Positions 5,289 to 63,934 of a DNA stretch of 64,000 nucleotides are shown piece after piece. A model generated the notes under the pieces. That model searched no databases. It saw only the letters and a program-made list of their open reading frames with translations, and was not told the DNA's origin. The position numbers and the translations under genes are program-made. Origin of the DNA: Eledone cirrhosa (Eukaryota); assembly GCA_964016885.1 (NCBI GenBank), contig OZ024741.1, positions 45,074,001 through 45,138,000 of the forward strand, in the 5' to 3' direction. Within the stretch, counting starts at the first letter, position 1. Every line of letters begins with the position of its first letter.

Positions 5289-5540
5289 TATAAGCTTTCA
5301 CCGTATTTTTGACTAAAGAAATCTTAGCCTGATAGTGGGGTTTGGAACCCTCAGAGAATTTGAATGGAAGGATATGGGTGATGTGTTGGTGTAATGGTAG
5401 CACAGTGGTCTGGATAACCAAAGATGTGGGTTCGACTCCCATGTACGTCAATACTCATTTTTTCCATTTCTCTGAGGGTTCTAAACCCCATTATCAGGCT
5501 AACATTTCTTTAGTCGAAAATACGGTGAAAGCTTATATTT
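5286..5540. repeat. Inverted repeat (~73-bp arms) enclosing a tRNA-like sequence
   Basis: 5286-5358 is the near-perfect reverse complement of 5468-5540. Confidence 0.85.
5380..5450 (+). pseudogene. tRNA-like cloverleaf (GGA in anticodon position, short variable loop); pseudo-tRNA or SINE head
   Basis: GATGTGT/GTACGTC acceptor, GTGT/GCAC D-stem, TGGT/ACCA anticodon stem, GTGGG-TTCGACT-CCCAT T-arm; T-run at 5458-5463. Confidence 0.6.
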
Positions 5541-31512: not shown

Positions 31513-32091
31513 AAACGAAAAATCAGTGATGCATCAAGACTCAGTTTATTGCGTGTTACAATTGTTTCGCCACCAGATAGCTCGAGACATGATCATTGTA
31601 TGGATCTGTCTGATTCTACAACTGCAGGTTCTTCGGACACATGCAATGCTTTCGGAGCAAATTTTCTCAATGGGGTGTTAGCTTAAAAAAACACCTTAAA
31701 AAATCATCTTCCACTCTTGTCTTCTGTGGGTATATACTCGCGAGTGTGAGCGGACGTGTGAGATACCAAACCCAGCATTACTCCATTGAAGTGTGTCGGA
31801 CGGAGAGTAGCTGATGACTAGTGTAGAAGCAAATAGTGACCAGAATTTATGATGACGTAGAAAAACAACAGCCAATGGCAAGACAAGAGTGGAAGATGTT
31901 TTTTTTAAGGTGATTTTTGAAGCTAACACCCCAGTGAGAAAATTTGCTCCGAAAGCATTGCATGTGTCAGAAGAACCTGCAGTTGTAGAATCAGGCAGAT
32001 CCAAACAATGATCATGTCTCGAGCTATCTGGCGGCGAAACAATTGTAACACGCAATAAACAGAGTCTAGATGCATCACTGATTTTTCGTTT
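31513..32091. mobile_element. Fold-back element (~210-bp arms) with two variant HHRs
   Basis: 31513-31723 versus 31880-32091; motifs gtgt C(C/A)GAAGA...GAAA caattG TA acac at 31553-31640(-) and 31964-32051(+); related to 28640-28790. Confidence 0.75.
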
Positions 32092-32106
32092 ATATATATA
32101 TATATA

Positions 32107-32900
<794 letters not shown>

Positions 32901-35252: not shown

Positions 35253-36743
35253 TTGTTTATATATATATATACAAGACCAGCAAGAGGCAGACCACCTACC
35301 ATTACCTCAATGGCCAAGAAAACCCACACAGATAGATGGAACGGGTGGACCAGAGCCATACGGACACCCGAAAACCACGATGAACTGAAGAAAATGATTG
35401 CACATGCGGTAGGGGCCAGCATAAAATTAACCCTTAAGGAACATATGTTCAAATTTAATGGTAAAACATATGCCCAAGAGGAAGGAGCAGCCATTGGTGT
35501 TAGCATTGCAGGCGACATAGCTAACTTATTCATGGTATGGTGGGACAGTAGACTTAAACAAAAACTTAATGAACAATTAGAAGACAGCTTAACCCTGATA
35601 ATGTACTCCCGCTACGTAGATGATATAAACATCGTAGTTAAGACACCCCCACTAAAGAACAGTCAGGAACGAGAGAAAAACACAATGGAAAGCATCCAGC
35701 AAATAGCAAACTCCATCCACCAGAGCATTAGAGTTACTATAGACTACCCAAGTAGACACCCCAACCATCGATTACCTGTACTAGACACAGAGCTCTGGTT
35801 AGATACCATTAACAACCAAAAACAAATCCTCCATTCCCATTATGCCAAACCCATGACTTCCAAACATCTGATCCACCGAAACTCGGCCATTTCGGACCAT
35901 ACCAAAATCAACATACTGATTGCGGTTTTGGTACGGGTGATGAGAAATGTGTCCCGCATGTGCAACCCCGAAGAACTAGAGAGACACATACAACACTTCA
36001 TCCACCGTATGCAGTTCTCTGGCTACAATCAGAGAGATAGAATCAGAGTGTATAAAGGAGCCAGAACCAAATGGGAAAAAATGGTAAATAATGACATAAA
36101 TGGGACCTACCCCTTGTACAGGGGCAAATTTTGGAATAGAATAGAAAGAACTAGGAACAAGGCCAATAGAATAAACTCATGGTATGATAGCAATAAATAC
36201 CAGAGTGTAATGTTCATCAATACAACCCCTAGAGGCGAACTAGCCTACAAATTTAGAAGGGCCCTAAATAAACATAATCTCAATATTAAGATAGTAGAAA
36301 AACCTGGTACCTCCGTAAAAACACTTATTAGCAAGACATACCCGTTCCAAAGACCCTCATGTATAGATAAGAAATGTATAACCTGTAAAATAAGCCCCCA
36401 TATTAACTGTAAAACTAGAAATGTAGTGTATAGCATAAGATGTACTGAAGGACAATGTAGAAACAAAAACATAGTGTACATAGGTGAGACAGCTCGTAGT
36501 ATAGGGGAACGAATAAATGAACACTGGCGAGACCTCCAAGATAATAAAGAATCATCTGTGCTCTACCAACATGCTAAGATAGAACACAGGGGTAGATTAG
36601 AGAGCATAGAAATAAAAATAGAATCCACGCACAGAAAAGACGCAATGTTTAGGCAAATTACAGAGGCAGTAAGCATAAAAGAATTAAAACCAAAATTAAA
36701 TAGAAAATATGAGTGGAACAGCAACATCACAACTTACAATTAA
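35253..36743 (+). CDS. PLE reverse transcriptase + GIY-YIG endonuclease (N-terminally truncated but uninterrupted)
   Basis: QEEGAAIG, RYVDD, LPVLD, CxxxxCxxC linker, NVVYSIRC...YIGETARS, RQITEAVSI, LNRK; real homology starts ~35272. Confidence 0.9.
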   Translation: MFIYIYTRPARGRPPTITSMAKKTHTDRWNGWTRAIRTPENHDELKKMIAHAVGASIKLTLKEHMFKFNGKTYAQEEGAAIGVSIAGDIANLFMVWWDSRLKQKLNEQLEDSLTLIMYSRYVDDINIVVKTPPLKNSQEREKNTMESIQQIANSIHQSIRVTIDYPSRHPNHRLPVLDTELWLDTINNQKQILHSHYAKPMTSKHLIHRNSAISDHTKINILIAVLVRVMRNVSRMCNPEELERHIQHFIHRMQFSGYNQRDRIRVYKGARTKWEKMVNNDINGTYPLYRGKFWNRIERTRNKANRINSWYDSNKYQSVMFINTTPRGELAYKFRRALNKHNLNIKIVEKPGTSVKTLISKTYPFQRPSCIDKKCITCKISPHINCKTRNVVYSIRCTEGQCRNKNIVYIGETARSIGERINEHWRDLQDNKESSVLYQHAKIEHRGRLESIEIKIESTHRKDAMFRQITEAVSIKELKPKLNRKYEWNSNITTYN

Positions 36744-37028
36744 GGACAAAATGAAAACACACACACACATAGAACAAACAACTTACAATTGAAAACACAC
36801 ACAAAATGAAAACACACACAGGACAAAATGAAAACACACACACACATAGAACAAACAACCAACCAACAATAAATAAATAAATAAATAAACAAATAGAAAA
36901 ATGAACACAAACACACACAGACACCCGGATGTGGCGCATGCGCAATCTGAGCACACAACACACACACAGAAACAAAATGGCGTAGGATAGAAGAAAGAAA
37001 AGGCACAGAAACGAAGAAAGGAATCCAC

Positions 37029-37073
37029 AGTCACTGAAGAGGTCACAGAGTGTGTGACGAAAGGACTATGACT
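37029..37073 (+). ncRNA. Minimal type I hammerhead in PLE 3' terminal repeat
   Basis: agtca CTGAAGA g GTCAC agagtgt GTGAC GAAA ggaC TA tgact. Confidence 0.75.
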
Positions 37074-37319
37074 ATATATATAAACAACTATCTGGTTGTG
37101 GAACCAACCAACCAACCAGAAATTTATAAGTTTGTAGATTTGTAAATTTATAAATATATAATAAATTGAAGTGAAAGCAACTGGTGCGTGTGTTTCTTAT
37201 TGGCAACATGACCCTCCCAAAGTATAACAATATCAGTTTCAACACACGATTTCAGATAAAGAATCTTGCTAAACAAATTCAGAAACGAAATATATATATA
37301 TATGAATATATATATATAA

Positions 37320-39845
37320 ATATTGTTATACTTGGGGAGGGTCATATTTGTGTAGTATTGCCAGAATTAATAAGACAACACACTCACTGTTTCGTTGGTT
37401 TTCGCTTTTCGCTTCTGTGTCTTTTATATCGTTAATCTAATTTATTCGGTCCTCAATGTTGCCATTGACTGACCGGCGGTCAAAAATAATACAGATACAA
37501 TATAGACACAAACACATATATATAGTTTATCAGAGTTCTCTCGTTGCACATCTGCAACATCGTCAGTGGTGCTATTGTTTCCTCCCGTTGCATTGTATGT
37601 CTACGCCATTTTTATTTAGTCTGTCTATATATTTATTTATTTATTTGTTTGTTCGTTCATTTTATTTTGTCTTCTTTGCGCATGCGTTTGCGTGTTTGAA
37701 TAGTGTTTTGTTTGATGTGTGTTCGTGATTGGATTACTAGTGTGTGTTTATATGTGTTTGTTGTTATTGTGCTTGTGTACGTATTTATTTATTTATTTAT
37801 CTATTTATTTATTTATTTATACTTCTCTTGGGTCAGTGTTGTTTGTTTGGGTGTTGTTGTTATTCCATTCATTCTTTCTGTTTAGTCTTGGCCTTCTAAG
37901 TTCTATTTCACTGGCCTCTCTGATTTGCCTATCTGCTGGGTCATTTCTATGTTTAGATATTATTCTAATTTCTATGTTGTCTATGTTACGGTCGTGTTGT
38001 TGTCTGGCATGTTCGTATAGTACTGACCCGTTTTTTCGTCCTTTTAGTTCCACCCAGTGTTGGTCTATACTTTCACCTATGCTACGAGCTGTCTCGCCTA
38101 TGTATGTTGTTGTCATGTTTCTGCAAGTACCCTCTGTCCATCTTATGCTATAGACTACGTTTCTAGTTTTACAGTTTGTCCGGGGATTTGCCTTACATAT
38201 GATACATTTCCTATTAGTACAGTGGGTTTTCTTAAAAGGGTAGGTTTTGCTGATCAGGCATTTTATGGTGGTTCCTGGCTTTTCTACCACCTTAATTTTT
38301 AAGTGGGTCTTTCTCAGGGCCTTTCTACACTGGTTAGTTAATTTCCCTCCAGGGGTAACGTCCACAAACATGACACTCTGGTATCTCTGGTTGTCGTACC
38401 ATGAGGTGGCTTTCCCTATCTTATGTCTAGCCCTATCTAAGCTATTACATGATTTGCTCCTGTATAATGTGCAATTCCGTTCATGTCCAGTTCTATGAGG
38501 GTCTTATACTTCCCCATGGCTCCTTCGTATACTCTGACTCTGTCTCTTTGGTAGTAGCCAGAGAACTGCATGCGGTTGATGAAGTGTTGGATGTGTCTTT
38601 CCATTTCTGTTGGGTCGCACATACGGGACACATTCTTCATCACTCGTACCAAATCTGCGATCAGAATATTAAACTTAGCACTACTGGACATTGCTGAGTT
38701 TTTGAGTATCAGGTATTTGGAGGCCATGGGTTTAGCATAGTGTGAGTGGAGAATTTGGGCTCTCTCGTTTATAGTGTTAATCCAGAGTTCCGTGTCTAAT
38801 ACAGGTAGTCTATTGTTAGGGTGTTTGGAAGGGAAGTCGATAGTTACAGTTATACTCTGGTGTATGGAATTAGCTATCTGCTGGATGCTTTCCATTGTGC
38901 TACGTTCTAAATCAAACTTGTTAGTGCTCTCTAGTGGGGATGTTCTTATAACTATATTGATATCGTCTACGTAACGAGAGTACATGATGAGGTCTATGGA
39001 GCTCTCATTAAGGAGATCTTTAAGTCTCCTTTCCCACCATACCATGAAAAGGTTGGCAACATCACCAGCTATGCTGACGCCAATGGCTGCTCCCTCATTT
39101 TGGGTGTAGATCTTCTCGTTGAATTTGAATATGTGGCCCTTTAGGGTAGTTTTGATACTAGCCCCTATTTCATGTGCGACCATTTTTCTTATCTGATCAT
39201 TGTTTTGGGGGTCCGTATAGCTTTGGTCCACCCAATCCACCTTCCCATGGGAGTCTTTTTTGCCATAGAGGGTATGGTGGGGGGTCTACATTTTATGGGT
39301 CTACTAGAGCAGAAACGTCTAAGGTCATGGCTGTCTAGGTAGTCAGAGTCGTAGGTAAGTCTAAGTAGAAAGCCCAGTTCGTCTGTGTCGACGTCGCAGA
39401 ACTCCACCTCACTCTCAATGATCAACTCCACACATTTTTCCACAGCAAAATCAATGTTAATGGATGGGTACAGTGATACCACATCCATGCTGCCTATTAT
39501 GCAGTTGGATAGGTTCCTATTTTTGTTGCACTCACCGTTTCTGCTGAGGAGGTCCTCTGTACTGTCACATACATCTGGGGACATCTTGATTATGGGGCGT
39601 ATAACCATTGAGAGGAAGTAGGAGATCCTGTAGTTGCTAGCTATATTAGCTCCGCATACGGGTCTTGTTGGTAGTCATGTTGTCGGGTCGTCTACTGTCG
39701 TGTGGTCTTTGCGGAGCCCATACAAGGGTAGTATGCCATTGTTAGACGGCTGGAAGTTGTTGGCAGTGCGTCTGCTTGGCTTTGGGATGTCAGTCCACAT
39801 CATCATATGAGCGTTGAGGGTTTTCTCTCTCCCATCATGTATTTG
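37320..39845 (-). pseudogene. Second, related Penelope-like element, frameshifted
   Basis: ORF pieces 39675-39830, 39189-39608 (SMDVVSLYPSI), 38437-39240 (RYVDD), 37817-38371 (NVVY...YIGET); decayed HHR CTGACGA...GAGA at 37529-37571. Confidence 0.9.
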
Positions 39846-47175: not shown

Positions 47176-47248
47176 TAATCATGGTGGGAATCGAACCCAC
47201 GACCTTCGGATTGCCGGTCCGTTGCTCTACAGACTGAGCTACCTGACC
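47176..47248 (-). pseudogene. tRNA-like gene (GGC in anticodon position), probably pseudo-tRNA or repeat-borne
   Basis: GGTCAGG TA GCTC agtctgta GAGC a aCGGA ccGGCaa TCCGa aggtc GTGGG TTCGATT CCCAC CATGATT A then CTTTT; mismatches in acceptor stem, C at position 33. Confidence 0.6.
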
Positions 47249-47900: not shown

Positions 47901-48952
47901 CATATGTAAATATATATATATGTATATATATACATATATGTATATATACTTAGGTTAATAGGAGTTAGGTATTGTATACCCGTGTCCCATTAAGGTATTG
48001 GCAGCATAATACAACCACTGATACTGTTACGAAGACCAGAAAACCATACTCCATAATATTGAACCAAGTGATTGATTTGTGCGACCAAAATAACACCACA
48101 CACATATTGAACTAGGAATATTGGATCCTCCGTCAATGTCCGGGTGAGCAAAAATAGATTTCTATCTGCATTGGAATTTACGAACTTGTGCATCTGCTGT
48201 TGTGTCAAAAACAAACGCGCACGACCACACAGATAAACAATGGACCACGCCACGTGGCTTGAACCCTTAAGTGAATTGAAGGTTCTGCAACTCTGATACA
48301 CAGATTATTTATTATTAAGATGTATTAACTCGACATAACTATTATCATCTTATATTCTCTTAACTAATCACACTTGATCATATTTCTCTATCCCGTTTTC
48401 TCCTCCCATAATTATTATATTTTTATTATTATTTGAAAAAATCGTTTTTTTTTACATTGTGTTTTCCCCTCCAAATATTCGCTTATATTTCTTTATATAT
48501 TCTCTATATATTTTTTTCTCTTTATTATTTCCACTTTTATCTTCCTTTATATTTTACCTTATTCTTACTTTTATACCTTATTATAGTGTAATCTTCCCCA
48601 TGCCTTATTATACACTATTAATTATAGATTATTATTATTACTCTTTCTCCATTTCTAATTACCTCATGTACTTTCTCCTCCGCTATATATATATATTGTA
48701 TGCCTTTTGTGTTTGTGTAGCCTCTGCGCACCCTCTGCACCATACTATCGACGCCACCCCATCTATGGTTCAGCTAACCACCCGACTCCCGGGAATGAAT
48801 ATGACCGCGGCTAGTAAACAAGAACCCACACCCCACCCACCCGCACCAAAATTAGACTTATCGTCCCATACTTTTGCTCTTTATTCTCTTTACTCTTTGT
48901 TCTTGAATGTTTGGTTGGTAGAGTCCATAATACCAATCAAACCCCTTTTATA

Positions 48953-48998
48953 GCTCTGACGAATCCTACGGTTACGTAAGGAAGAAACATTGTAAGAC
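48953..48998 (+). ncRNA. Type I hammerhead motif, weak stem I
   Basis: ct CTGACGA a TCCTACG gtta CGTAAGGA a GAAA cattG TA ag. Confidence 0.6.
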
Positions 48999-49140
48999 AT
49001 TAAAAATCCTTTGATGTTGTAGACGCTCTTGTGTTCTTTTTCATATATGTATATATATATACATATATATAAGTATGTATGTATACGTACATACATATAT
49101 GTATACAGACGTACAGTAGCATGCATATATATATATATAT

Positions 49141-50821
49141 ATATGAATATAGACATAGAATATTCGAAAATATTCTGTATGTTTATAATAAACATTTTGA
49201 AGACCTAATCGCTATAGAATAGAATACGTCACGTATTACAATTAGATTCTCGATAAAAGCAAGGGAAGTAATCTACGCGTTTCATTCTTGTTAGAAATCA
49301 TCAGGACTACATATCCAGTGCTTTTATCGAGAATGACACAGCTAGAGACTTATAGAATACTTAGCTGTGTACAGGAACTGGTTTGAAAGAGCGGTTGCCG
49401 GTCCGGCAGAAATTAGAAATTGGAATAAATGCTCTTATCGAGAATATAATTGTAATACGTGACGTATTCTATTCTATAGCGATTAGGTCTTCAAAATGTT
49501 TATTATAAACATACAGAATATTTTCGAATATTCTATGTCTATATTCACATATATATCGCTATTTCAGAGCATTTATTCCAATTTCTAATTTCTGCCGGAC
49601 CGGCAACCGCTCTTTCAAACCAGTTCCTGTACACAGCTAAGTATTCTATAAGTCTCTAGCTGTGTCATTCTCGATAAAAGCACTGGATATGTAGTCCTGA
49701 TGATTTCTAACAAGAATGAAACGCGTAGATTACTTCCCTTGCTTTTATCGAGAATCTAATTGTAATACGTGACGTATTCTATTCTATAGCGATTAGGTCT
49801 TCAAAATGTTTATTATAAACATACAGAATATTTTCGAATATTCTATGTCTATATTCACATATATATCGCTATTTCAGAGCATTTATTCCAATTTCTAATT
49901 TCTGCCGGACCGGCAACCGCTCTTTCAAACCAGTTCCTGTACACAGCTAAGTATTCTATAAGTCTCTAGCTGTGTCATTCTCGATAAAAGCACTGGATAT
50001 GTAGTCCTGATGATTTCTAACAAGAATGAAACGCGTAGATTACTTCCCTTGCTTTTATCGAGAATCTAATTGTAATACGTGACGTATTCTATTCTATAGC
50101 GATTAGGTCTTCAAAATGTTTATTATAAACATACAGAATATTTTCGAATATTCTATGTCTATATTCACATATATATCGCTATTTCAGAGCATTTATTCCA
50201 ATTTCTAATTTCTGCCGGACCGGCAACCGCTCTTTCAAACCAGTTCCTGTACACAGCTAAGTATTCTATAAGTCTCTAGCTGTGTCATTCTCGATAAAAG
50301 CACTGGATATGTAGTCCTGATGATTTCTAACAAGAATGAAACGCGTAGATTACTTCCCTTGCTTTTATCGAGAATCTAATTGTAATACGTGACGTATTCT
50401 ATTCTATAGCGATTAGGTCTTCAAAATGTTTATTATAAACATACAGAATATTTTCGAATATTCTATGTCTATATTCACATATATATCGCTATTTCAGAGC
50501 ATTTATTCCAATTTCTAATTTCTGCCGGACCGGCAACCGCTCTTTCAAACCAGTTCCTGTACACAGCTAAGTATTCTATAAGTCTCTAGCTGTGTCATTC
50601 TCGATAAAAGCACTGGATATGTAGTCCTGATGATTTCTAACAAGAATGAAACGCGTAGATTACTTCCCTTGCTTTTATCGAGAATCTAATTGTAATACGT
50701 GACGTATTCTATTCTATAGCGATTAGGTCTTCAAAATGTTTATTATAAACATACAGAATATTTTCGAATATTCTATGTCTATATTCACATATATATCGCT
50801 ATTTCAGAGCATTTATTCCAA
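49141..50821 (+). repeat. Tandem array C: ~4.5 apparently identical 310-bp HHR units preceded by one inverted near-complete unit
   Basis: HHR at 49691, 50001, 50311, 50621 (+) and 49268-49310 (-); inversion junction near 49433. Confidence 0.95.
49691..49733 (+). ncRNA. Type I hammerhead (array C representative)
   Basis: gtagtc CTGATGA t TTC taacaa GAA t GAAA cgcG TA gattac. Confidence 0.85.
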
Positions 50822-50831
50822 TATATATATA

Positions 50832-50879
<48 letters not shown>

Positions 50880-50999
50880 CATACAGGTACACATACATAT
50901 ATGTACGCATCAGTTTAGCGGACGCTTATTATAGCGCCCGCTTTGTTCGTTTGTAAACTGATGCGTACATATATGTATGTGTACCTGTATGTATAAATG

Positions 51000-51081
<82 letters not shown>

Positions 51082-51236
51082 TGCTACTGTACGTCTGTAT
51101 ACATATATGTATGTACGTATACATACATACTTACATTTAAGTAAGTGCCGTACTAAGAGTGAGAAATGAAATTTCGTTTTCATTTTTTTTACAACTCATC
51201 GTTTTCGGTGCGCCTGACCGATTTAACTCACTCGAC

Positions 51237-51284
51237 ATGCAAATTAGGCTGCTCAGCCGTTAATTTTCATAAGGAAAGTATATA
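51237..51284 (+). promoter_or_regulatory. Candidate octamer / PSE-like / TATA block upstream of the HHR
   Basis: ATGCAAATtag.ctgc...taattttcata.gaaag.atata, conserved with similar spacing in array A (e.g. 23112-23158). Confidence 0.4.
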
Positions 51285-51318
51285 CCTTCGAACGTTCAAC
51301 GATCTGGCAGATGGGTAT

Positions 51319-51361
51319 ACGGTGCTGATGATAGCTAACAAGCTTGAAACTAGTACATCGT
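51319..51361 (+). ncRNA. Type I hammerhead ribozyme (family B)
   Basis: acggtg CTGATGA t AGC taacaa GCT t GAAA ctaG TA catcgt. Confidence 0.85.
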
Positions 51362-51512
51362 TCCTGTGCCAGTGTTGAACAAAAAGGTGACATGGTTGCG
51401 TTAACACCGTGCGGCATAAATTCAGGCTGTTCAGTTTATTTACAAACGAACAAAGCGGGCGCAATAATAAGCGTCCGCTAAACTGATGCGTACATATATG
51501 TATGTGTACCTG

Positions 51513-51572
<60 letters not shown>

Positions 51573-51940
51573 TGCTACTGTACGTCTGTATTCATATATG
51601 TATGTACGTATACATACATACTTACATTTAAGTAAGTGCCGTACTAAGAGTGAGAAATGAAATTTCGTTTTCATTTTTTTTACATATATATATATATACA
51701 TATATGTATATATATACATATATACACATATATATACATATATGTATATATATACATATATATATATATATACATATATGTATATATATACATATATATA
51801 TATATATACATATATGTATATATATACACATATATATATATATATATACATATATGTATATATATATATATATATATATACATATATATATACATATATG
51901 TATATATATACATGTATATAAATATATATATATGTATATA

Positions 51941-52664
51941 TTATGAAAATAAATCAAAGAAGCCTTCAATACATCAAAAGTCTTTATTAGCCAACAATGT
52001 TTCGTCCTATTAACGACTCATCAGGGCAATTAAAGCTATTTATATTGAAATTTTATATCATTCCACTCTTTGTAAACATACTACTGATCATTATTATTTA
52101 CGAATTATTATATGTACCCTTATGTTATGTTAAATTCTGTAAACCCTGTAATATGTTGACAATTTTATAATTCATGTAATGTTTGGATAATATTTATTTA
52201 TTTACACCAAATGTATAGAAATTTGATCTATTTTCTTGCAATGGTTTTGATATATTTCCAACATAATTTTTCCAATATAATTTAGTTCTGTACAATATTT
52301 TTCTCACCCTGACTGTAAATCGATATGATTTATTAAGTTATATGCCATTATATTATAATATTGTGATTTTAGTTGTTATCGTAAAATTTATATTGTTTGT
52401 GCAAATTAACCGGAGATTATCTATTATATTATTATATAATTATATAGTTTATTATATATTTTATGCTTACTTTTAATCATTCATTTTATACTGTAAATAT
52501 TATATGCATCATATTTTAATTTTATTTTCATTTGTATTTTTCATTTGTATTTTTATTTTTATTTTTATTATTATTATTCTTATTTATATTTAAACTCTTG
52601 ATAAGGGTTAGTTTGTGCTTCTATTGATGGAAATGTGTATAGATATATATGTATATGTGTATAC

Positions 52665-52704
<40 letters not shown>

Positions 52705-53227
52705 TGGGCCTTTTAACATTATTATTATTATCATTATTAATTATATTATATTATATTATATTATATTATATTATATTATATTATATTATATTATATTATG
52801 TATAGTACAATAATTCCCGCTCTATATCCCCACCTCTGTTTTAGCTCTAGTTTTTGCATTGGACTATATATGTAATATGGTTCAAAATGTTACTTACTTC
52901 CTTAGCAATTAGCACTCGATAATTTTTTACTTGATGATTTTTACCCGATTATTTTCCTATGATTTAATCTATGTACACTCCATATTCTTCTGAGTTTTCG
53001 GCTTGTATTGGCTGATAGTGCTTCTTATAGCTTTAATTGCCCTGATGAGTCCTTAATAGGACGAAACATTGTTGGCTAATAAAGACTTTTGAAGTATTGA
53101 AGGCTTCTTTGATTTATTTTCATAATTCTTCGGCTCTGTTTAATTACATTGAGCTATACCTTTACTGTCATTTCTATAATACGAAGAGGGTGTTTAACTC
53201 CAACATACTCTAGTATTTCAATTCTTA

Positions 53228-54876: not shown

Positions 54877-57147
54877 TGAAATTAATAAGGTTAAAAATGA
54901 AAGTAAATCAGAAAAGGTAGTCGTAAAGAGAATAATAAGAGCTTATGGAGGATAAGTATCTGAAAGTGTGTTAAGTTTATATGAGGTGGAAAGCAGGTGT
55001 GATTTCATGTGTGGGCAACTGGTGAAAATTTCTGTCTTTGTGTTTAGGCAGGTCTTTGGTGATTTAAGGTTTTGCAAAATCCAATATTTTTTCATTTATA
55101 CAGAGCGTGCATTTTTTTGTTCCTCTTGCATATTCTTTAGATTGGTTCAAAATTGACCAATCCAATTTATATTGGATACCTTGGTCTTTCAAATCCCATA
55201 TTCTGCTAGCCAGAGCTGTTGTAAATCTTTTTTCTGGATGTCGAAAGGATGCGACATGTGAGTAATAACGCGATTTGAATTTGTCTTGCGTCATACCCAC
55301 ATATCGTTCACTGGTGACTGGTTGGTTGTTGCTGAAGGTTGTCACTTTAGCCGCATATACAATGGCTTTGGTGTTGCATTTACCTTGTAATGGGCATTCA
55401 CTTTTGATTCTACAGGAACAATTTTGATGTTCTCTAGGTGATTTTTTGTTGATGATATAGGATTTAATAGGGGAACCGCAGGAGTAGCTAATTTTGACAC
55501 AGTTTCTATTAAAGATCTTATAGTATCTATGTGTTCTAGGGAAATGTTTATCTAAGAGCTCTAGGAATTTTTTGCCTACATTAGTTTTAACTGCTAGAGA
55601 GTAGGGGGGTGTGAACCAGATTTTTTTCTTTTCCTGTTTTTATGTTTAATAGAGTTAGTATAGTTGGGTATGTATTTAATCGGTTCGCTAAAACCGCTAT
55701 TTTGGAAGGCTTTATTATAGTAGGGGGATGCCTTATTGAAAATAGCTTCTGAGGAAGAGAGGGTGGAGATCCTACGGCTAATATTAGGGATAAGGTTTTT
55801 AAAAACTATAGGAGGATGGCAATAGCCTTTATATATATATTTTAAGTTTTCATTAGGTTTATGGTATGGTTTATAAGAAGCAGTAGGCAAATCTAGGTTT
55901 ATATCTAGGAAATTTACATTGGAAAGGTTAGTGTCAATAGTAATTTTAAGATTAAAACTAGCAAAGGTTTTTATTAAGTCTTTCCTTAATCTATCTAAGT
56001 TATGGCCTATGGTGGTATGGGAAACTATTCGACCATCGTCGCGATAAAGCCCCAAAATATGGTTAGGGAATTTTTATTTAAGTGTGTGTAGGAGGAATAG
56101 GCCGACTAAATCACAAACATCATCACTGTCATAAGAGCCCATTGAGACATCGAATGGGCTCTCTTGGTTAGATATTTTTACCCAAGTGTCATTATCAGTA
56201 AAGAGTAGAGTGTTTCTAGCGTGCAAGATGACATTCTCTTCAATATCAGAGATATTGGTAAACTTTCTAGCGAAATTTAAAGCTTTCGCTAAAAGAGTCT
56301 AAGTGATAGATGGGTAGAAATCTACAATGTCAAATTGGGTGAATCTAGAACTATTTTTGTTTTTAATTTTATTAAACCAATGTACTACGGAAGAGCTATT
56401 TATCCATTGGAGTAATTTAGACTTACTTCTAATGTGTGTATTTATATTATTTAAAATTTTTTTGCTGGCAAGACCTATAGCAGTCTTAGCAGGGTTGATT
56501 AATCTACAACTAGGACGATTAATAAAGTCGGGTTTGTGATCTTTAAGGGTGATATATACATTACGTTTAGCAAGTTTTTCTGTCCTATTATCTATTTTTA
56601 AAGAAACAGCTAATTCTTTAGCTTCCTTATTTATATTATGATACGTGTTTATATTAGCTATTTGGTATTTAGAGGTGATATTATCTATTAATAGTTGGTC
56701 GTGTAAATTATTGTTAACTTCATATAGGTTTTTAGTTTTGTCGGAGAAGATGAACTTATTATTAGAAGATTTGAATGTTGAAATATCATTAGATAATTTA
56801 GATTGAAAAGGGTTAGAGTACTTACGAAAATTGATATTGTTGATTAGGTTAACTAGGTCTAGTTCAAAAGCGGTCATATCTTTTACTCTTTGCGGATATT
56901 TATGAGTTTTGATGTCAAAATATTCCGTAGAATCTGTGTTAAAGTGTCCATCGAGAATCAAAGCTTTCCATCTCATTCTTTTAACAACCTTCTCTACTTT
57001 GTCTATCAGCATTTTCGTGTAGAGAGTGTTAGAAGGTGTTGGGATATTCTTGATAGAGTAATCCAAAGGGTATTTATCCATGTTCAGTATTGGTTTAAAA
57101 TCCTATTGACTGAAGAGTGCTCGACTTTAAAAGGGCTGATATATATG

Positions 57148-57187
<40 letters not shown>

Positions 57188-60100
57188 AGGACATTTAAAA
57201 TAAATCTAAGGTAAAAGACGAATTGTCAACAATATCTTTTGCAATTGCATTCTTTTTTCTATGTCCATACCTGCATTGTTTTGGCTTTATTATACATATT
57301 CAAACGTTTATACCTCATTACACAATGCTTCAAGTGAACTATAACCTCCTCCTTTCCTTACGCCTGAGCCAGGCCCAGTTCACAACTGTAAAGAAACTCT
57401 TCCAGCTATCTGAAAAGCGCGCATAAGCCGGCTGCCAAATAAACTTGCTAAAACGATGCCTGAATAACAACATCATCCCCAAAACTATCAAAAATTTGCA
57501 CCTACCAACATGCTTCAAATCACCAGGCCTCAAACGATCACTTAGTTACATACAAAAATTCTGCCTAAGAAAACTCATACAACACCTACACCGCACGCTA
57601 CAACATCACATACGGACTATTTCCAGCCTTGTACCACAACTCGCTGAAACCCCAGAACCTCTGTCCAGAGTCATCTCCGCCACTATAGACAGGTCATACC
57701 ACCATCGCCGAGACTTCGAGAACAAGACGGTACCAACACCGAACCTAGCGGCGCCCCGACCAACAAAACACCTGACGCAAAACACCTCGTCACAGACTTG
57801 ACAGGATCCCTCTCCCGAGAGGAATTAGACCTCCTCAGCCTGGGACCCAAGTTCATATTGAAACAGAGACTGGACGACAAATTATGGCTCGACATAGAAA
57901 CGAATTTCTGTCGGGCTGCCTACCAACTAAAATGGATATCGACTCTCGACAACAACACCATCTATCAAACCCAGATTCCCGATATACCAACTTTATCGCC
58001 CACTCTGTCCACCGCCTGCCAACCGCGAGCTTGAAGAAAAACTCTCGAGACTAAAACATTCCGTATTTAACATCTTACAGAAATAGAAGAAGATAGCACC
58101 AAACCTCTCCAGGACACAACAACTCGCCCTGAAGAACCTACGGAATAGGGAACTTATATACTTACCATCCGACAAAGGTAAAGAGTTTTGCGTCATCTCT
58201 CAAGCCACATACAATAACCTAGCCTTTGAACACCTAAGCGACAATGAATTATACACAGAGATCCCGGACATGACTGCAGCCCAGATCGAAAAACAGACCA
58301 ACTCCATTTGGTTCGATATCTGTAGGAGAAGACAACTCCCAAATAAAGTTAAGCTCAATTACACCACTAGAAATAGCAGACTGCCCAATTTCTACCACCT
58401 CATCAGGACCCACAAGAATAGCACTAAGACGCAAAGAAGACCCATCGTCTCTAGCATAGAAGGACCCCTATACAAAATTTCCTGGCTCCTCTCCCAGGTC
58501 CTCAAGCCTCTACTCTGCACCTTTCCCGGGCATGTCAGTAGCTCCGTCGAAGTTATACGTAGACTACACCAACGCCAGCCAGAACAACTTAAACTAAATA
58601 AATACGCTTTTAGCCTCGACGTTGTCTCCCTCTACACTACAGTCCCCGCTCATCCAGCTGTCGATTTATTGACGGACTGCGTGGTCGCAGAGGATATCCA
58701 CTGCTACGGCCTCCACCCAACGGACATACACCAGGTTTTTGTCCTTCACAGTAGACAACACGTACTTCACCATCCACCACCACACATACAGACAGACAAC
58801 AGAATTACCCATGGGATCCAGCCTATCGGGCCTGCTGGCCATCACCTACATGAACCAGCTAGAATGTCGAGCCCTCAACACCTGCCATTCCCATGCCTTC
58901 TTCACCCGATATGTAGATGACATACTCATCCTCACATCATCCCGTGAGGAGGCAGATAAAATATACACAACATTCTCCAGCATGGACGCCAGTATAAAGT
59001 TCAGCATGGAACACCCCGATTACCGCGGATCCCTATCCCTACTGGACTTCCAACTCAGGGTAACAGAGGAAGGCAACATCCACAACTGCTTCTATAAAAA
59101 AGCCGCCAGCAGGGACCTGTTCGTACATTTCAGATTGGCCCTCCCACTCGGTGCCAAGTTCGGATACATAAGGAACGAACTGGCACGTATCCGAAACAAA
59201 TGCACCGACGCTAGAGACCGAGACACACACACCACACATTTCCTGGAAGTACTCAAACTGAACGGATACACGACATCCACCACAAACTTTGCCAGAAAGA
59301 ACAGAGGACACCACACCCGAGGCACTAACACTTGCTTCCTGAAGCTCCCACACTTCAGTGAAGAAACAACAACAGCCATCCGCAGAGCCATCAGACGAGA
59401 AGGACTAGATATCCAACTGGCCCACTCAGGTCCTTCTCTGCGCGGACAGCTAGCCAAAAGGCACTCCACGAGACATGACAACTGCTGCAGACTAGCCAAC
59501 TGTCCCATCAACGACACAGACCTATGCGACCAGGCTTACGTCGTATACAGACTAGAGTGTGAAATGCAACAACTTCTACGTAGGTAGCACCACCAGACCA
59601 CTCCACATAAGAATAAAAGAACACCTCAATACTAACGCTTCCTCATTTAAGAAACACCTAGTTAAATGCAAAAACATCGACAAAACCATAACAGTTAGCA
59701 TAGAAACAAAGGAAAGAAACCTCGGCAATCTTAGAATTATGGAAGCACTAATTATAGATAAAACACAACCACCAATCAATAATAGAACTAGAACTCAACA
59801 CACAATTTATAACCTGATAGGGCTTCTAGCCCCATATTTACACACCCCACACACACGCACGCACAATCACACACGCTTACACCTCCACTTATTCTCTCTC
59901 ACACATACACACACAAAACCAGTTCTAACACCAGATAACACATATCCCCCACATTTACGAATAGACTTATCTTCTCACACTCACACACACTCACATACTT
60001 ACGCCTTCATACATTCTCCCACACACTTAAACAGGCATGTATATAACAAAAAACCTAAACAAACCCCTTTTAAAGGGAGACAACTCTTCATCCACCTAAT

Positions 60101-60354
60101 TTTAACTCTTTGACATTAGAGATAGAACAGATACTCTATACTATTTCCTGTCAGCATGGCTTGGCAAGATATTTAGAACGCTGGTTTGAGACCTTTATTT
60201 CCCTCTGAAGAGGAGATATTATCTCGAAAATTAAGGACATTTAAAATAAATCTAAGGTAAAAGACGAATTGTCAACAATATCTTTTGCAATTGCATTCTT
60301 TTTTCTATGTCCATACCTGCATTGTTTTGGCTTTATTATACATATTCAAACGTT

Positions 60355-60357
<3 letters not shown>
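57188..60357 (+). mobile_element. Full-length Penelope-like element with direct terminal repeats; ORF (~57325-59800) disrupted
   Basis: 57188-57312 repeated at 60234-60357; LLSLGPKF, PSDKG, RPIVS, SLDVVSLYTTVP, PMGS, RYVDD, VVY...C..C...YVGST, RIKEH. Confidence 0.92.
60202..60236 (+). ncRNA. Minimal type I hammerhead in PLE 3' terminal repeat
   Basis: cct CTGAAGA g GAGAT att ATCTC GAAA aT TA agg; palindromic AATT stem III. Confidence 0.8.
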
Positions 60358-63795
<3,438 letters not shown>

Positions 63796-63934
63796 TAGTA
63801 TACTAGGGAGAGGATCAGGGGTGTATAACACTCCACTTATCCAGCAGGCAGTATAAGGTTAGCTCAATGTCTGAGGACAGAGCCGTGATATAATAAATAA
63901 CAAAGAACGCCTATAGCATATGCATATCTTTACT

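Follow-up and report, generated by a model that had tools for sequence, protein, structure and literature searches.

A putative retrozyme array of Eledone cirrhosa with two divergent arms and Penelope-type ends

How does an array of almost identical 310-bp units, each carrying a hammerhead ribozyme motif, come to lie in a (TA)n run together with a copy of the unit that points the other way? The question is raised by one locus in a window of 64,000 nucleotides of the Eledone cirrhosa genome (assembly GCA_964016885.1, contig OZ024741.1, positions 45,074,001 to 45,138,000). The window, on contig C2 of a 3.0-Gb assembly, has a high AT content and is crowded with (TA)n runs, fragments of Penelope-like elements (PLEs) and hammerhead motifs; one of its (TA)n runs extends over 3.4 kb (60355-63802). 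An initial annotation of the array described a very recent insertion of a multimeric cDNA by PLE machinery, with a PLE-style 5' inversion.

The locus and its ribozyme motif

Tandem Repeats Finder gave a period of 310 and 4.5 copies for positions 49430-50822, matching the copy number first proposed, and the forward arm equals the unit at every position but 49434 and 49446 (Table 1; phase 1 is the first base past the predicted cut, window 49728). Base 49434 is inverted-arm sequence, and the one true forward-arm substitution is at 49446, so the earlier statement that the forward units show no differences holds except at this base. The inverted unit, described as near-complete, measures 0.97 unit (49135-49435) and has a single difference from the unit, at 49143, adjoining the TA run. 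The join between the arms had been placed near 49433 at a TGCT microhomology; TGCT at 49430-49433 is compatible with both arms, but 49434 is compatible with the inverted arm alone, which moves the arm switch to 49435 and means that the overlap is not a clean one of 4 nt.

The unit has a GC content of 34% and, when circularised, a longest ATG frame of 30 aa. It thus has no coding capacity, encodes neither a reverse transcriptase nor a GIY-YIG endonuclease (no frame exceeds 30 aa), and is non-autonomous. Loci of this kind are made solely of unit repeats, with the LTR-internal layout absent, and judged by its sequence the element appears to be a member of a young family of non-LTR retrozymes, within which this locus alone is ordinary.

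Table 1. Features of the array, its host element and the nearby autonomous PLE copy, in window coordinates
Feature	Position	Strand	Remarks
Arm A, inverted, 0.97 unit (301 nt)	49135..49435	-	outer end at phase 139, within the unit's own (TA)4
Arm B, ~4.5 head-to-tail 310-bp units	49435..50822	+	outer end at phase 165
Inner junction of arms A and B	49430..49435	.	5-of-6 overlap
Tail, 26 nt (phases 140-165)	50797..50822	+	at outer end of arm B only
(TA)n target, left part	49125..49134	.	border with arm A ambiguous
(TA)n target, right part	50823..50880	.	
Hammerhead motif, inverted arm	49246..49334	-	predicted cut after 49274, minus strand
Type I hammerhead motif, first forward unit	49667..49755	+	core 49697, predicted cut after 49727
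Hammerhead motif, second forward unit	49977..50065	+	predicted cut after 50037
Hammerhead motif, third forward unit	50287..50375	+	predicted cut after 50347
Hammerhead motif, fourth forward unit	50597..50685	+	predicted cut after 50657
Host element, left piece of interrupted inverted arm	49070..49124	-	exact reverse complement of 51079-51133
Host element, right piece of inverted arm	50881..50957	-	1 mismatch vs reverse complement of 51439-51515
Host element, forward arm	50954..51684	+	hammerhead core at 51325
Young autonomous PLE, 5'-truncated copy	35253..36743	+	same two-end rule; candidate enzyme donor

The array is itself inserted in another hammerhead element, which has a ~491-bp unit and two divergent arms; the insertion point is the (TA)n inside its inverted arm, a sequence that would mask any target-site duplication. 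The outer ends of this host element differ by ~60 nt, and another copy of it lies at 32091-32841. The inverted repeat around the array was considered as a rearrangement and rejected, being the interrupted host element.

Each motif of the 310-bp unit consists of a 6-bp stem I, the core, a 4-bp stem II with a U.U pair at its base, and a 2-bp palindromic stem III. The perfect outer helix of 16 bp that had been noticed from the start is an exact reverse complement in 4/4 forward motifs and in the inverted one and forms in the predicted fold (z = -5.6). The monomer as a whole is predicted to be highly paired (z = -4.4), and the motif scan put the cut at the position predicted before, after 49727. 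Two motifs are predicted to co-fold as a dimer through a 6-bp intermolecular stem III, and the dimer form is described for metazoan type I hammerheads in the accessible text of PMC4209133. Since Rfam at its gathering threshold detected no hammerhead within the 64-kb window, the ribozyme call rests on the motif, the helices and the variant pattern described below. Rfam found nothing in the window besides two tRNA-like matches above threshold (5380-5450 and 47176-47248), which are possibly tRNA-derived repeats. The same helical architecture had also been claimed for a 468-bp hammerhead array of 6.8 units at 22691-25880, with its outer end at (TA)n; that array does have a long outer helix in its predicted fold, but the helix is bulged and the array has a single arm. 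The ribozyme of one of its units, near 24150, was missed by the motif scan.

Ends, arms and variants across the family

An internal 44-nt word of the unit has 14,690 exact occurrences in the genome (~4.6 Mb), and a 43-nt ribozyme word of this haplotype has 4,177 as an exact pattern. Because two-arm loci hold a mean of 9 units, the first count suggests ~1,600 loci genome-wide. The family is dispersed over many loci, with more than 1,100 junctions of each of two end types (1,106 A ends and 1,165 B ends by exact pattern, genome-wide).

Loci were collected in two ways. The first 12 loci listed for the ribozyme word served as a core-picked sample, in which ends were not used for selection, and comprised 9 complete two-arm loci, 1 single-armed locus, 1 cut by a gap and 1 extending beyond the fetched span. 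Exact unit-to-TA junction patterns gave 197 ends among those listed in the first 245 Mb of C1, with 61 divergent pairs. Fifty-nine of the 61 pairs were fetched, two being too long, and yielded 58 simple two-arm loci and one locus in four pieces (L103), which was dropped. The 75 unpaired ends were divided into 40 that were fetched, 10 already in the core-picked sample and 25 left out; the 40 long fetches contained 32 complete two-arm loci, each with a second end that had escaped the exact pattern, 1 incompletely fetched two-arm locus and 7 single-armed loci. The scored set was 91 two-arm loci, window locus included, and since each was found via one end, the test bears on the other.

Among the 91 loci, 45 were of type AB and 46 of type BA, with 0 AA and 0 BB; all were divergent, and both outer ends never lay at the same site. 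The 61 divergent pairs among the C1 ends listed were likewise all mixed, with no AA or BB, and in the core-picked sample 9/9 complete two-arm loci were A+B and divergent, their A ends lying at phase 139 and their B ends at 165-167. Across the scored set, the A end lies near phase 139 and B ends at 165-172, mostly at AT/TA dinucleotides, and a tail of 26-36 nt is present on one end only in 91/91. These asymmetric ends are the PLE ‘tail’. Outer ends adjoin TA-type runs in 178/182 cases, a proportion to be read with the fact that ends were partly found by TA-containing patterns. At A ends, phase 131 is T, like the target, and not C, like the unit, in 56/91 loci, so the target run appears to overwrite this position, placing the start of copying at 129-139.

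Median arm length is 981 nt for A and 1,349 nt for B, with a maximum of 7,109 nt, and both arms exceed one unit in 76/91 loci. The lengths of the two arms are weakly correlated (rho 0.24, p = 0.02), and the inverted second arm is the longer one in 41/91. Inner ends are scattered over the unit, with 3/182 falling within 5 nt of the cut site compared with 5.9 expected. A linear monomer was therefore ruled out as template, since the arms do not stop at the predicted cut site but read through it. Where the inner junction is free of inserts, microhomology of at least 2 nt was found in 39/66 cases, vs 18.7% simulated; another 25 junctions have small inserts, several of them copied from nearby unit sequence. 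An unrelated GC-rich sequence of 272 nt was captured at the inner junction of one locus (L036:2299-2570), and the four-piece locus has a repeated junction segment (L103:2331-2508), which suggests that the template was switched twice where the arms meet.

The consensuses of the two arms were identical in 80/87 loci with enough overlap, compared with 1,021 of 7,729 between-locus pairs (13%). The 91 loci fall into 35 haplotypes, mosaics of which were seen just twice, and 17 of the 18 locus-private variants covered by both arms were present in every unit, as in L137, where a private variant occupies 24/24 units. Variants confined to a single unit numbered 130 in 247,986 nt (0.052%), and 5 loci had any variant shared between units; the window locus has 1 single-unit variant in 1,640 aligned bases. 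Because neighbouring units almost never share variants, the array appears to have been amplified in one step. The best reading of the pattern is that both arms were copied from one shared template, mostly via a monomer stage.

Variants lying in register in both arms, yet not in all units, were detected in three events (L121, L169 and L201), compared with ~42 expected had all templates been linear multimers carrying an equal load of variants, an expectation that presumes that source arrays varied at today's rate and that falls if most variants arose later or are assembly errors. In these three loci a single heterogeneous template served both arms, which begin in one and the same of its units. 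This speaks for double priming on one molecule, and since a single monomer circle cannot give partial variants in register, some templates were multimers. In another locus (L189) the outer ends of the two arms differ in haplotype, and one arm passes from one haplotype to another along its length, as a template switch or subsequent conversion could produce.

Inherited (locus-fixed) variants and single-unit variants differ in their effect on the ribozyme. Pairing is kept by 7/7 inherited helix substitutions vs 2/14 single-unit ones (Fisher p = 3e-4), and the core or stem III is affected by 0/34 inherited variants vs 7 single-unit variants. This sparing of the ribozyme implies that templates pass a filter for an intact ribozyme, and the ribozyme would then be under selection, as expected if cutting and circularisation come before copying. 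The commonest inherited variants, at phases 284, 287, 294 and 295, all lie at tolerated ribozyme positions (range 284-295); one of them, 287 T>A, which has become fixed in 15 loci, replaces the U.U pair beneath stem II with A-U.

A candidate Penelope-like partner and a proposed mechanism of insertion

The same window holds a copy of a young autonomous PLE (Table 1; further material of this family lies at window 35253-37290 and in loci L294-L312). The family shows 98-100% identity among 150 matches scored and open frames of up to 1,281 aa, and its 4,276-bp unit carries a hammerhead motif, ends in (TA)n and has a 60-nt tail, compared with 26-36 nt in the retrozyme. Nineteen regions were fetched, and 16 divergent two-arm copies were chosen by strand pattern, not by their ends. 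In 15 of the 16, one end lay at 180-182 and one at 242 (the end of L304 was read from its flank); the exception, L301, is a perfect palindrome with two tailed 242 ends. In L294, full-length units are repeated in tandem with 99.7% identity, and L309 has an arm longer than one unit, so a circle or a read-through multimer may serve as template for this PLE too. Pfam gave weak or partial matches to RVT_1 and GIY-YIG on 4/10 window frames and no match on the 1,281-aa frame, and we take the YVDD and YIGET motifs, together with the weak Pfam matches, as the basis of PLE identity. No homology was detected between the unit and the terminal repeats of two PLE families (30 + 30 loci), and a 15-nt unit/PLE match (E = 0.22) was treated as chance.

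These results bear on the remaining claims of the initial annotation. Its ‘very recent’ date agrees with the single variant at this locus and the 0.05% family-wide, and its multimeric cDNA with the near absence of variants shared by neighbouring units. The attribution to PLE machinery gains from an autonomous PLE of the same genome that obeys the same two-end rule and is a candidate donor of the enzyme. The inversion is indeed of PLE type, but the inverted piece is no flipped 5' portion of the forward arm; it ranks as a second arm in its own right, which starts at a separate fixed site.

Two non-coding sister families share parts of this pattern. A 316-nt retrozyme family, 64% identical to the unit and with 6,001 motif matches, has ends at 140 and 166-171 in the six places with both mapped. 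This family is older (L202-L231), and ~5 of its arms stop near the predicted cut site, which suggests linear cleaved monomers as templates in those places. A third family (L050:2100-2345; L313-L342) is also older, with 91-93% identity among copies, and keeps the tail motif at approximately phases 140-165; its L050 member was considered as a PLE terminal repeat, which was rejected in favour of another non-coding sister family. No relation to a PLE terminal repeat was found beside 60 loci of the older sister families. PLE-type terminal repeats with hammerhead motifs lie near the array at 48900-49030 (core ~48955) and at 51946-53226 (core ~53043), the latter an inverted pair with ends differing by ~100 nt, and three further broken PLE copies of different types occur within 25 kb (37817-39674, 55064-57102 and 57427-60113).

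The two-arm, two-end pattern is likely to record the simultaneous copying of a single small RNA circle by a PLE enzyme from the two cut DNA strands. We consider it probable that a PLE-type enzyme nicked both strands of the (TA)n run and used each of them as a primer on the same RNA, in most cases the predicted 310-nt circle. By analogy with known retrozymes, read-through transcripts of an array would cleave themselves via dimeric hammerheads and be ligated into circles. The internal (UA)4 at phases 129-139 would pair with one DNA end, and copying from the other end would start at 165-172, in keeping with the end positions observed. Both cDNAs would then pass the cut site repeatedly, as arms of up to 7.1 kb suggest, and their 3' ends would join through the short microhomologies or small templated inserts seen at the junctions. 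A minority of insertions likely had uncut multimeric RNA as template. Whether the reaction is obligately paired, with a dimeric enzyme holding one RNA, each half using one start site and one strand in a double rolling circle, we regard as evenly balanced.

An alternative keeps the double priming but makes the uncut linear multimer, transcribed from an existing array, the usual template, with circles minor. The in-register variants in both arms at three loci favour it, as do a purified PLE protein that used unprocessed RNA in vitro and a 2-bp stem III, which predicts weak monomer cleavage (accessible text of PMC11167929 and PMC4209133, respectively). We nevertheless hold it unlikely, because three in-register events fall far below the ~42 expected, because 35 haplotypes with 2 mosaics and private variants in all units need a monomer stage, because the ribozyme is kept intact in inherited variants, and because an array cannot be lengthened by linear copying. 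A further alternative is single priming followed by fold-back, in which the enzyme switches to its own cDNA to form the inverted arm and an endonuclease resolves the far end, leaving the tail on one side. Resolution of this kind is suggested in PMC8557442 and self-priming is held responsible for palindromic junctions in PMC3846280, as far as their accessible text goes; such junctions occur in two autonomous PLE copies (L301 and L311), and end A lies in (TA)4, itself a possible cut site. However, neither arm can be contained in the other at 14/91 loci, compared with 8.3 expected from shuffled lengths, inner phases lie within 15 nt of each other in 8 loci vs 9.1 expected and so are not close, either arm may be the longer, and 84 variants of the overlap zone are confined to one arm. 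Fold-back is on this evidence quite improbable.

Homogeneous arrays can also arise by concerted evolution, and monomers or short copies might have been inserted first and have grown later by unequal crossing-over or DNA-level amplification. Growth after insertion has been proposed for vertebrate families (10.64898/2026.07.22.740005). Stepwise growth, however, leaves variants shared between neighbours, where 130 single-unit variants were found against 5 loci with shared ones, and both arms are multi-unit in most loci and hold the same private variants, making this explanation very improbable. An artefact of assembly or consensus, in which repeats collapsed and the inversion is chimeric, has in its favour near-identical units set in TA runs and a junction at this locus known from the assembly alone; the junction at 49430-49435 is bridged in none of the contigs listed from sequencing runs. 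An artefact is scarcely credible in view of fixed complementary ends in 91 loci, haplotypes common to both arms, single-unit variants, the same end rule in unrelated families, and contigs of two sequencing runs (X1 and X2) that contain unit-to-TA loose ends and inversion-type joints.

Relation to known systems and matches in sequencing runs

The family resembles metazoan non-LTR retrozymes, as described in the accessible text of PMC7229834, PMC7761336 and 10.64898/2026.07.22.740005, in its noncoding tandem units of ~300 bp with low GC (the class spans 150-450 bp), in one type I hammerhead per unit, in a highly paired predicted monomer and in the presence of PLEs within the same genome, and a model leading from a circle to multimeric cDNA has already been proposed there. 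The arrays described in those texts run head to tail and have no motif pointing to a mobilising element, whereas most loci here consist of two divergent arms with fixed complementary ends; the word ‘inverted’ is absent (0 occurrences) from the main text of PMC7229834 as accessible. Expression and circles were demonstrated for the published retrozymes, while this family is known from genomic sequence. The preprint (10.64898/2026.07.22.740005) prefers local amplification once the element has inserted, with which the variant pattern of the present family does not agree.

Endonuclease-bearing PLEs, in the accessible text of PMC8557442 and PMC3846280, share with it the inverted upstream arm, the tail on one end, the microsatellite target, the hammerhead motif and the microhomology junction, and have an inverted 5' copy with a tail of 30-40 bp. 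The present element differs in encoding no protein, in the multimeric arms of a short unit and in a tail of 26-36 nt, and the one-end tail, worded there as ‘often’ or ‘optionally’, is strict here (91/91). PAc (a Poseidon element from Anolis), the one purified PLE in the accessible text of PMC11167929, is alike in that AT-rich DNA is cut and extended on both of its strands, in that two internal start sites bracket a tail and in that the protein is predicted to be a dimer. Its main substrate was uncut RNA; the study found the strands alike in start site, detected no homology at that site and had no need of the ribozyme (PMC11167929). In the family studied here, by contrast, there is always one site for each end, the target shares TA homology with site A, and selection apparently acts on the ribozyme.

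In LINE-1 twin priming, two target ends prime on one RNA and produce an inverted arm with a microhomology join, as is also seen here. The second priming site of LINE-1 is variable, and its arms copy different parts of a linear RNA, whereas the present loci have two fixed sites, separated by 26-36 nt, and arms that each repeat a single sequence, common to both, many times over. Our searches, made mostly outside subscription journals, found no published pairing of retrozymes with twin priming.

The element class, the one-end tail, two start sites, extension of both strands and the idea of a circle giving a multimer are all published, at least in the accessible texts cited above. Literature searches, screened by title and the opening of the abstract, listed no account of retrozyme insertions with two arms, and they returned no PLE signature on retrozyme arrays, no strict end pairing and no support from variants for a monomer template common to both arms. 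The identity of the enzyme that mobilises animal retrozymes is stated as open in PMC7761336 and PMC7229834, and how PLEs form tandem and inverted structures and the tail in PMC8557442, again as far as their accessible text goes. A large, young and nearly undamaged set of insertions now ties retrozyme arrays to the PLE signature and makes this mechanism testable through insertion anatomy, with probable constraints on the reaction: one end per type, one template, mostly a monomer stage and a required ribozyme. A 310-nt substrate with two mapped start sites would suit the existing in vitro PLE assay. If true, the double rolling circle would offer one mechanism for animal retrozyme arrays and for the tandem and inverted structures of PLEs, and a natural route from a small RNA circle to multi-kilobase tandem DNA.

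The unit was also met in sequencing runs of other organisms. Between 0.69 and 0.94 of its words (49430-50060) were present in 20 runs of 17 coded organisms and 16 studies (runs X1-X24), and a metagenome scan gave 0 matches to the unit. A set of Hi-C reads with the same organism label as X12 (1.94 Gb) had 0 reads with the unit, and another sample of organism H had next to none of its words. The unit in the runs from organisms other than A is likely to be carry-over; horizontal transfer was considered and not accepted, carry-over being likelier, and a mobile RNA circle is barely tenable as their source. Unit depth in organism A reached several hundred thousand. In four runs outside organism A (X3, X5, X8 and X12) the unit appeared as a single contig of 340 nt with 0-1 differences and a depth of 10-365, and 340 nt is the length expected of a closed 310-nt loop.
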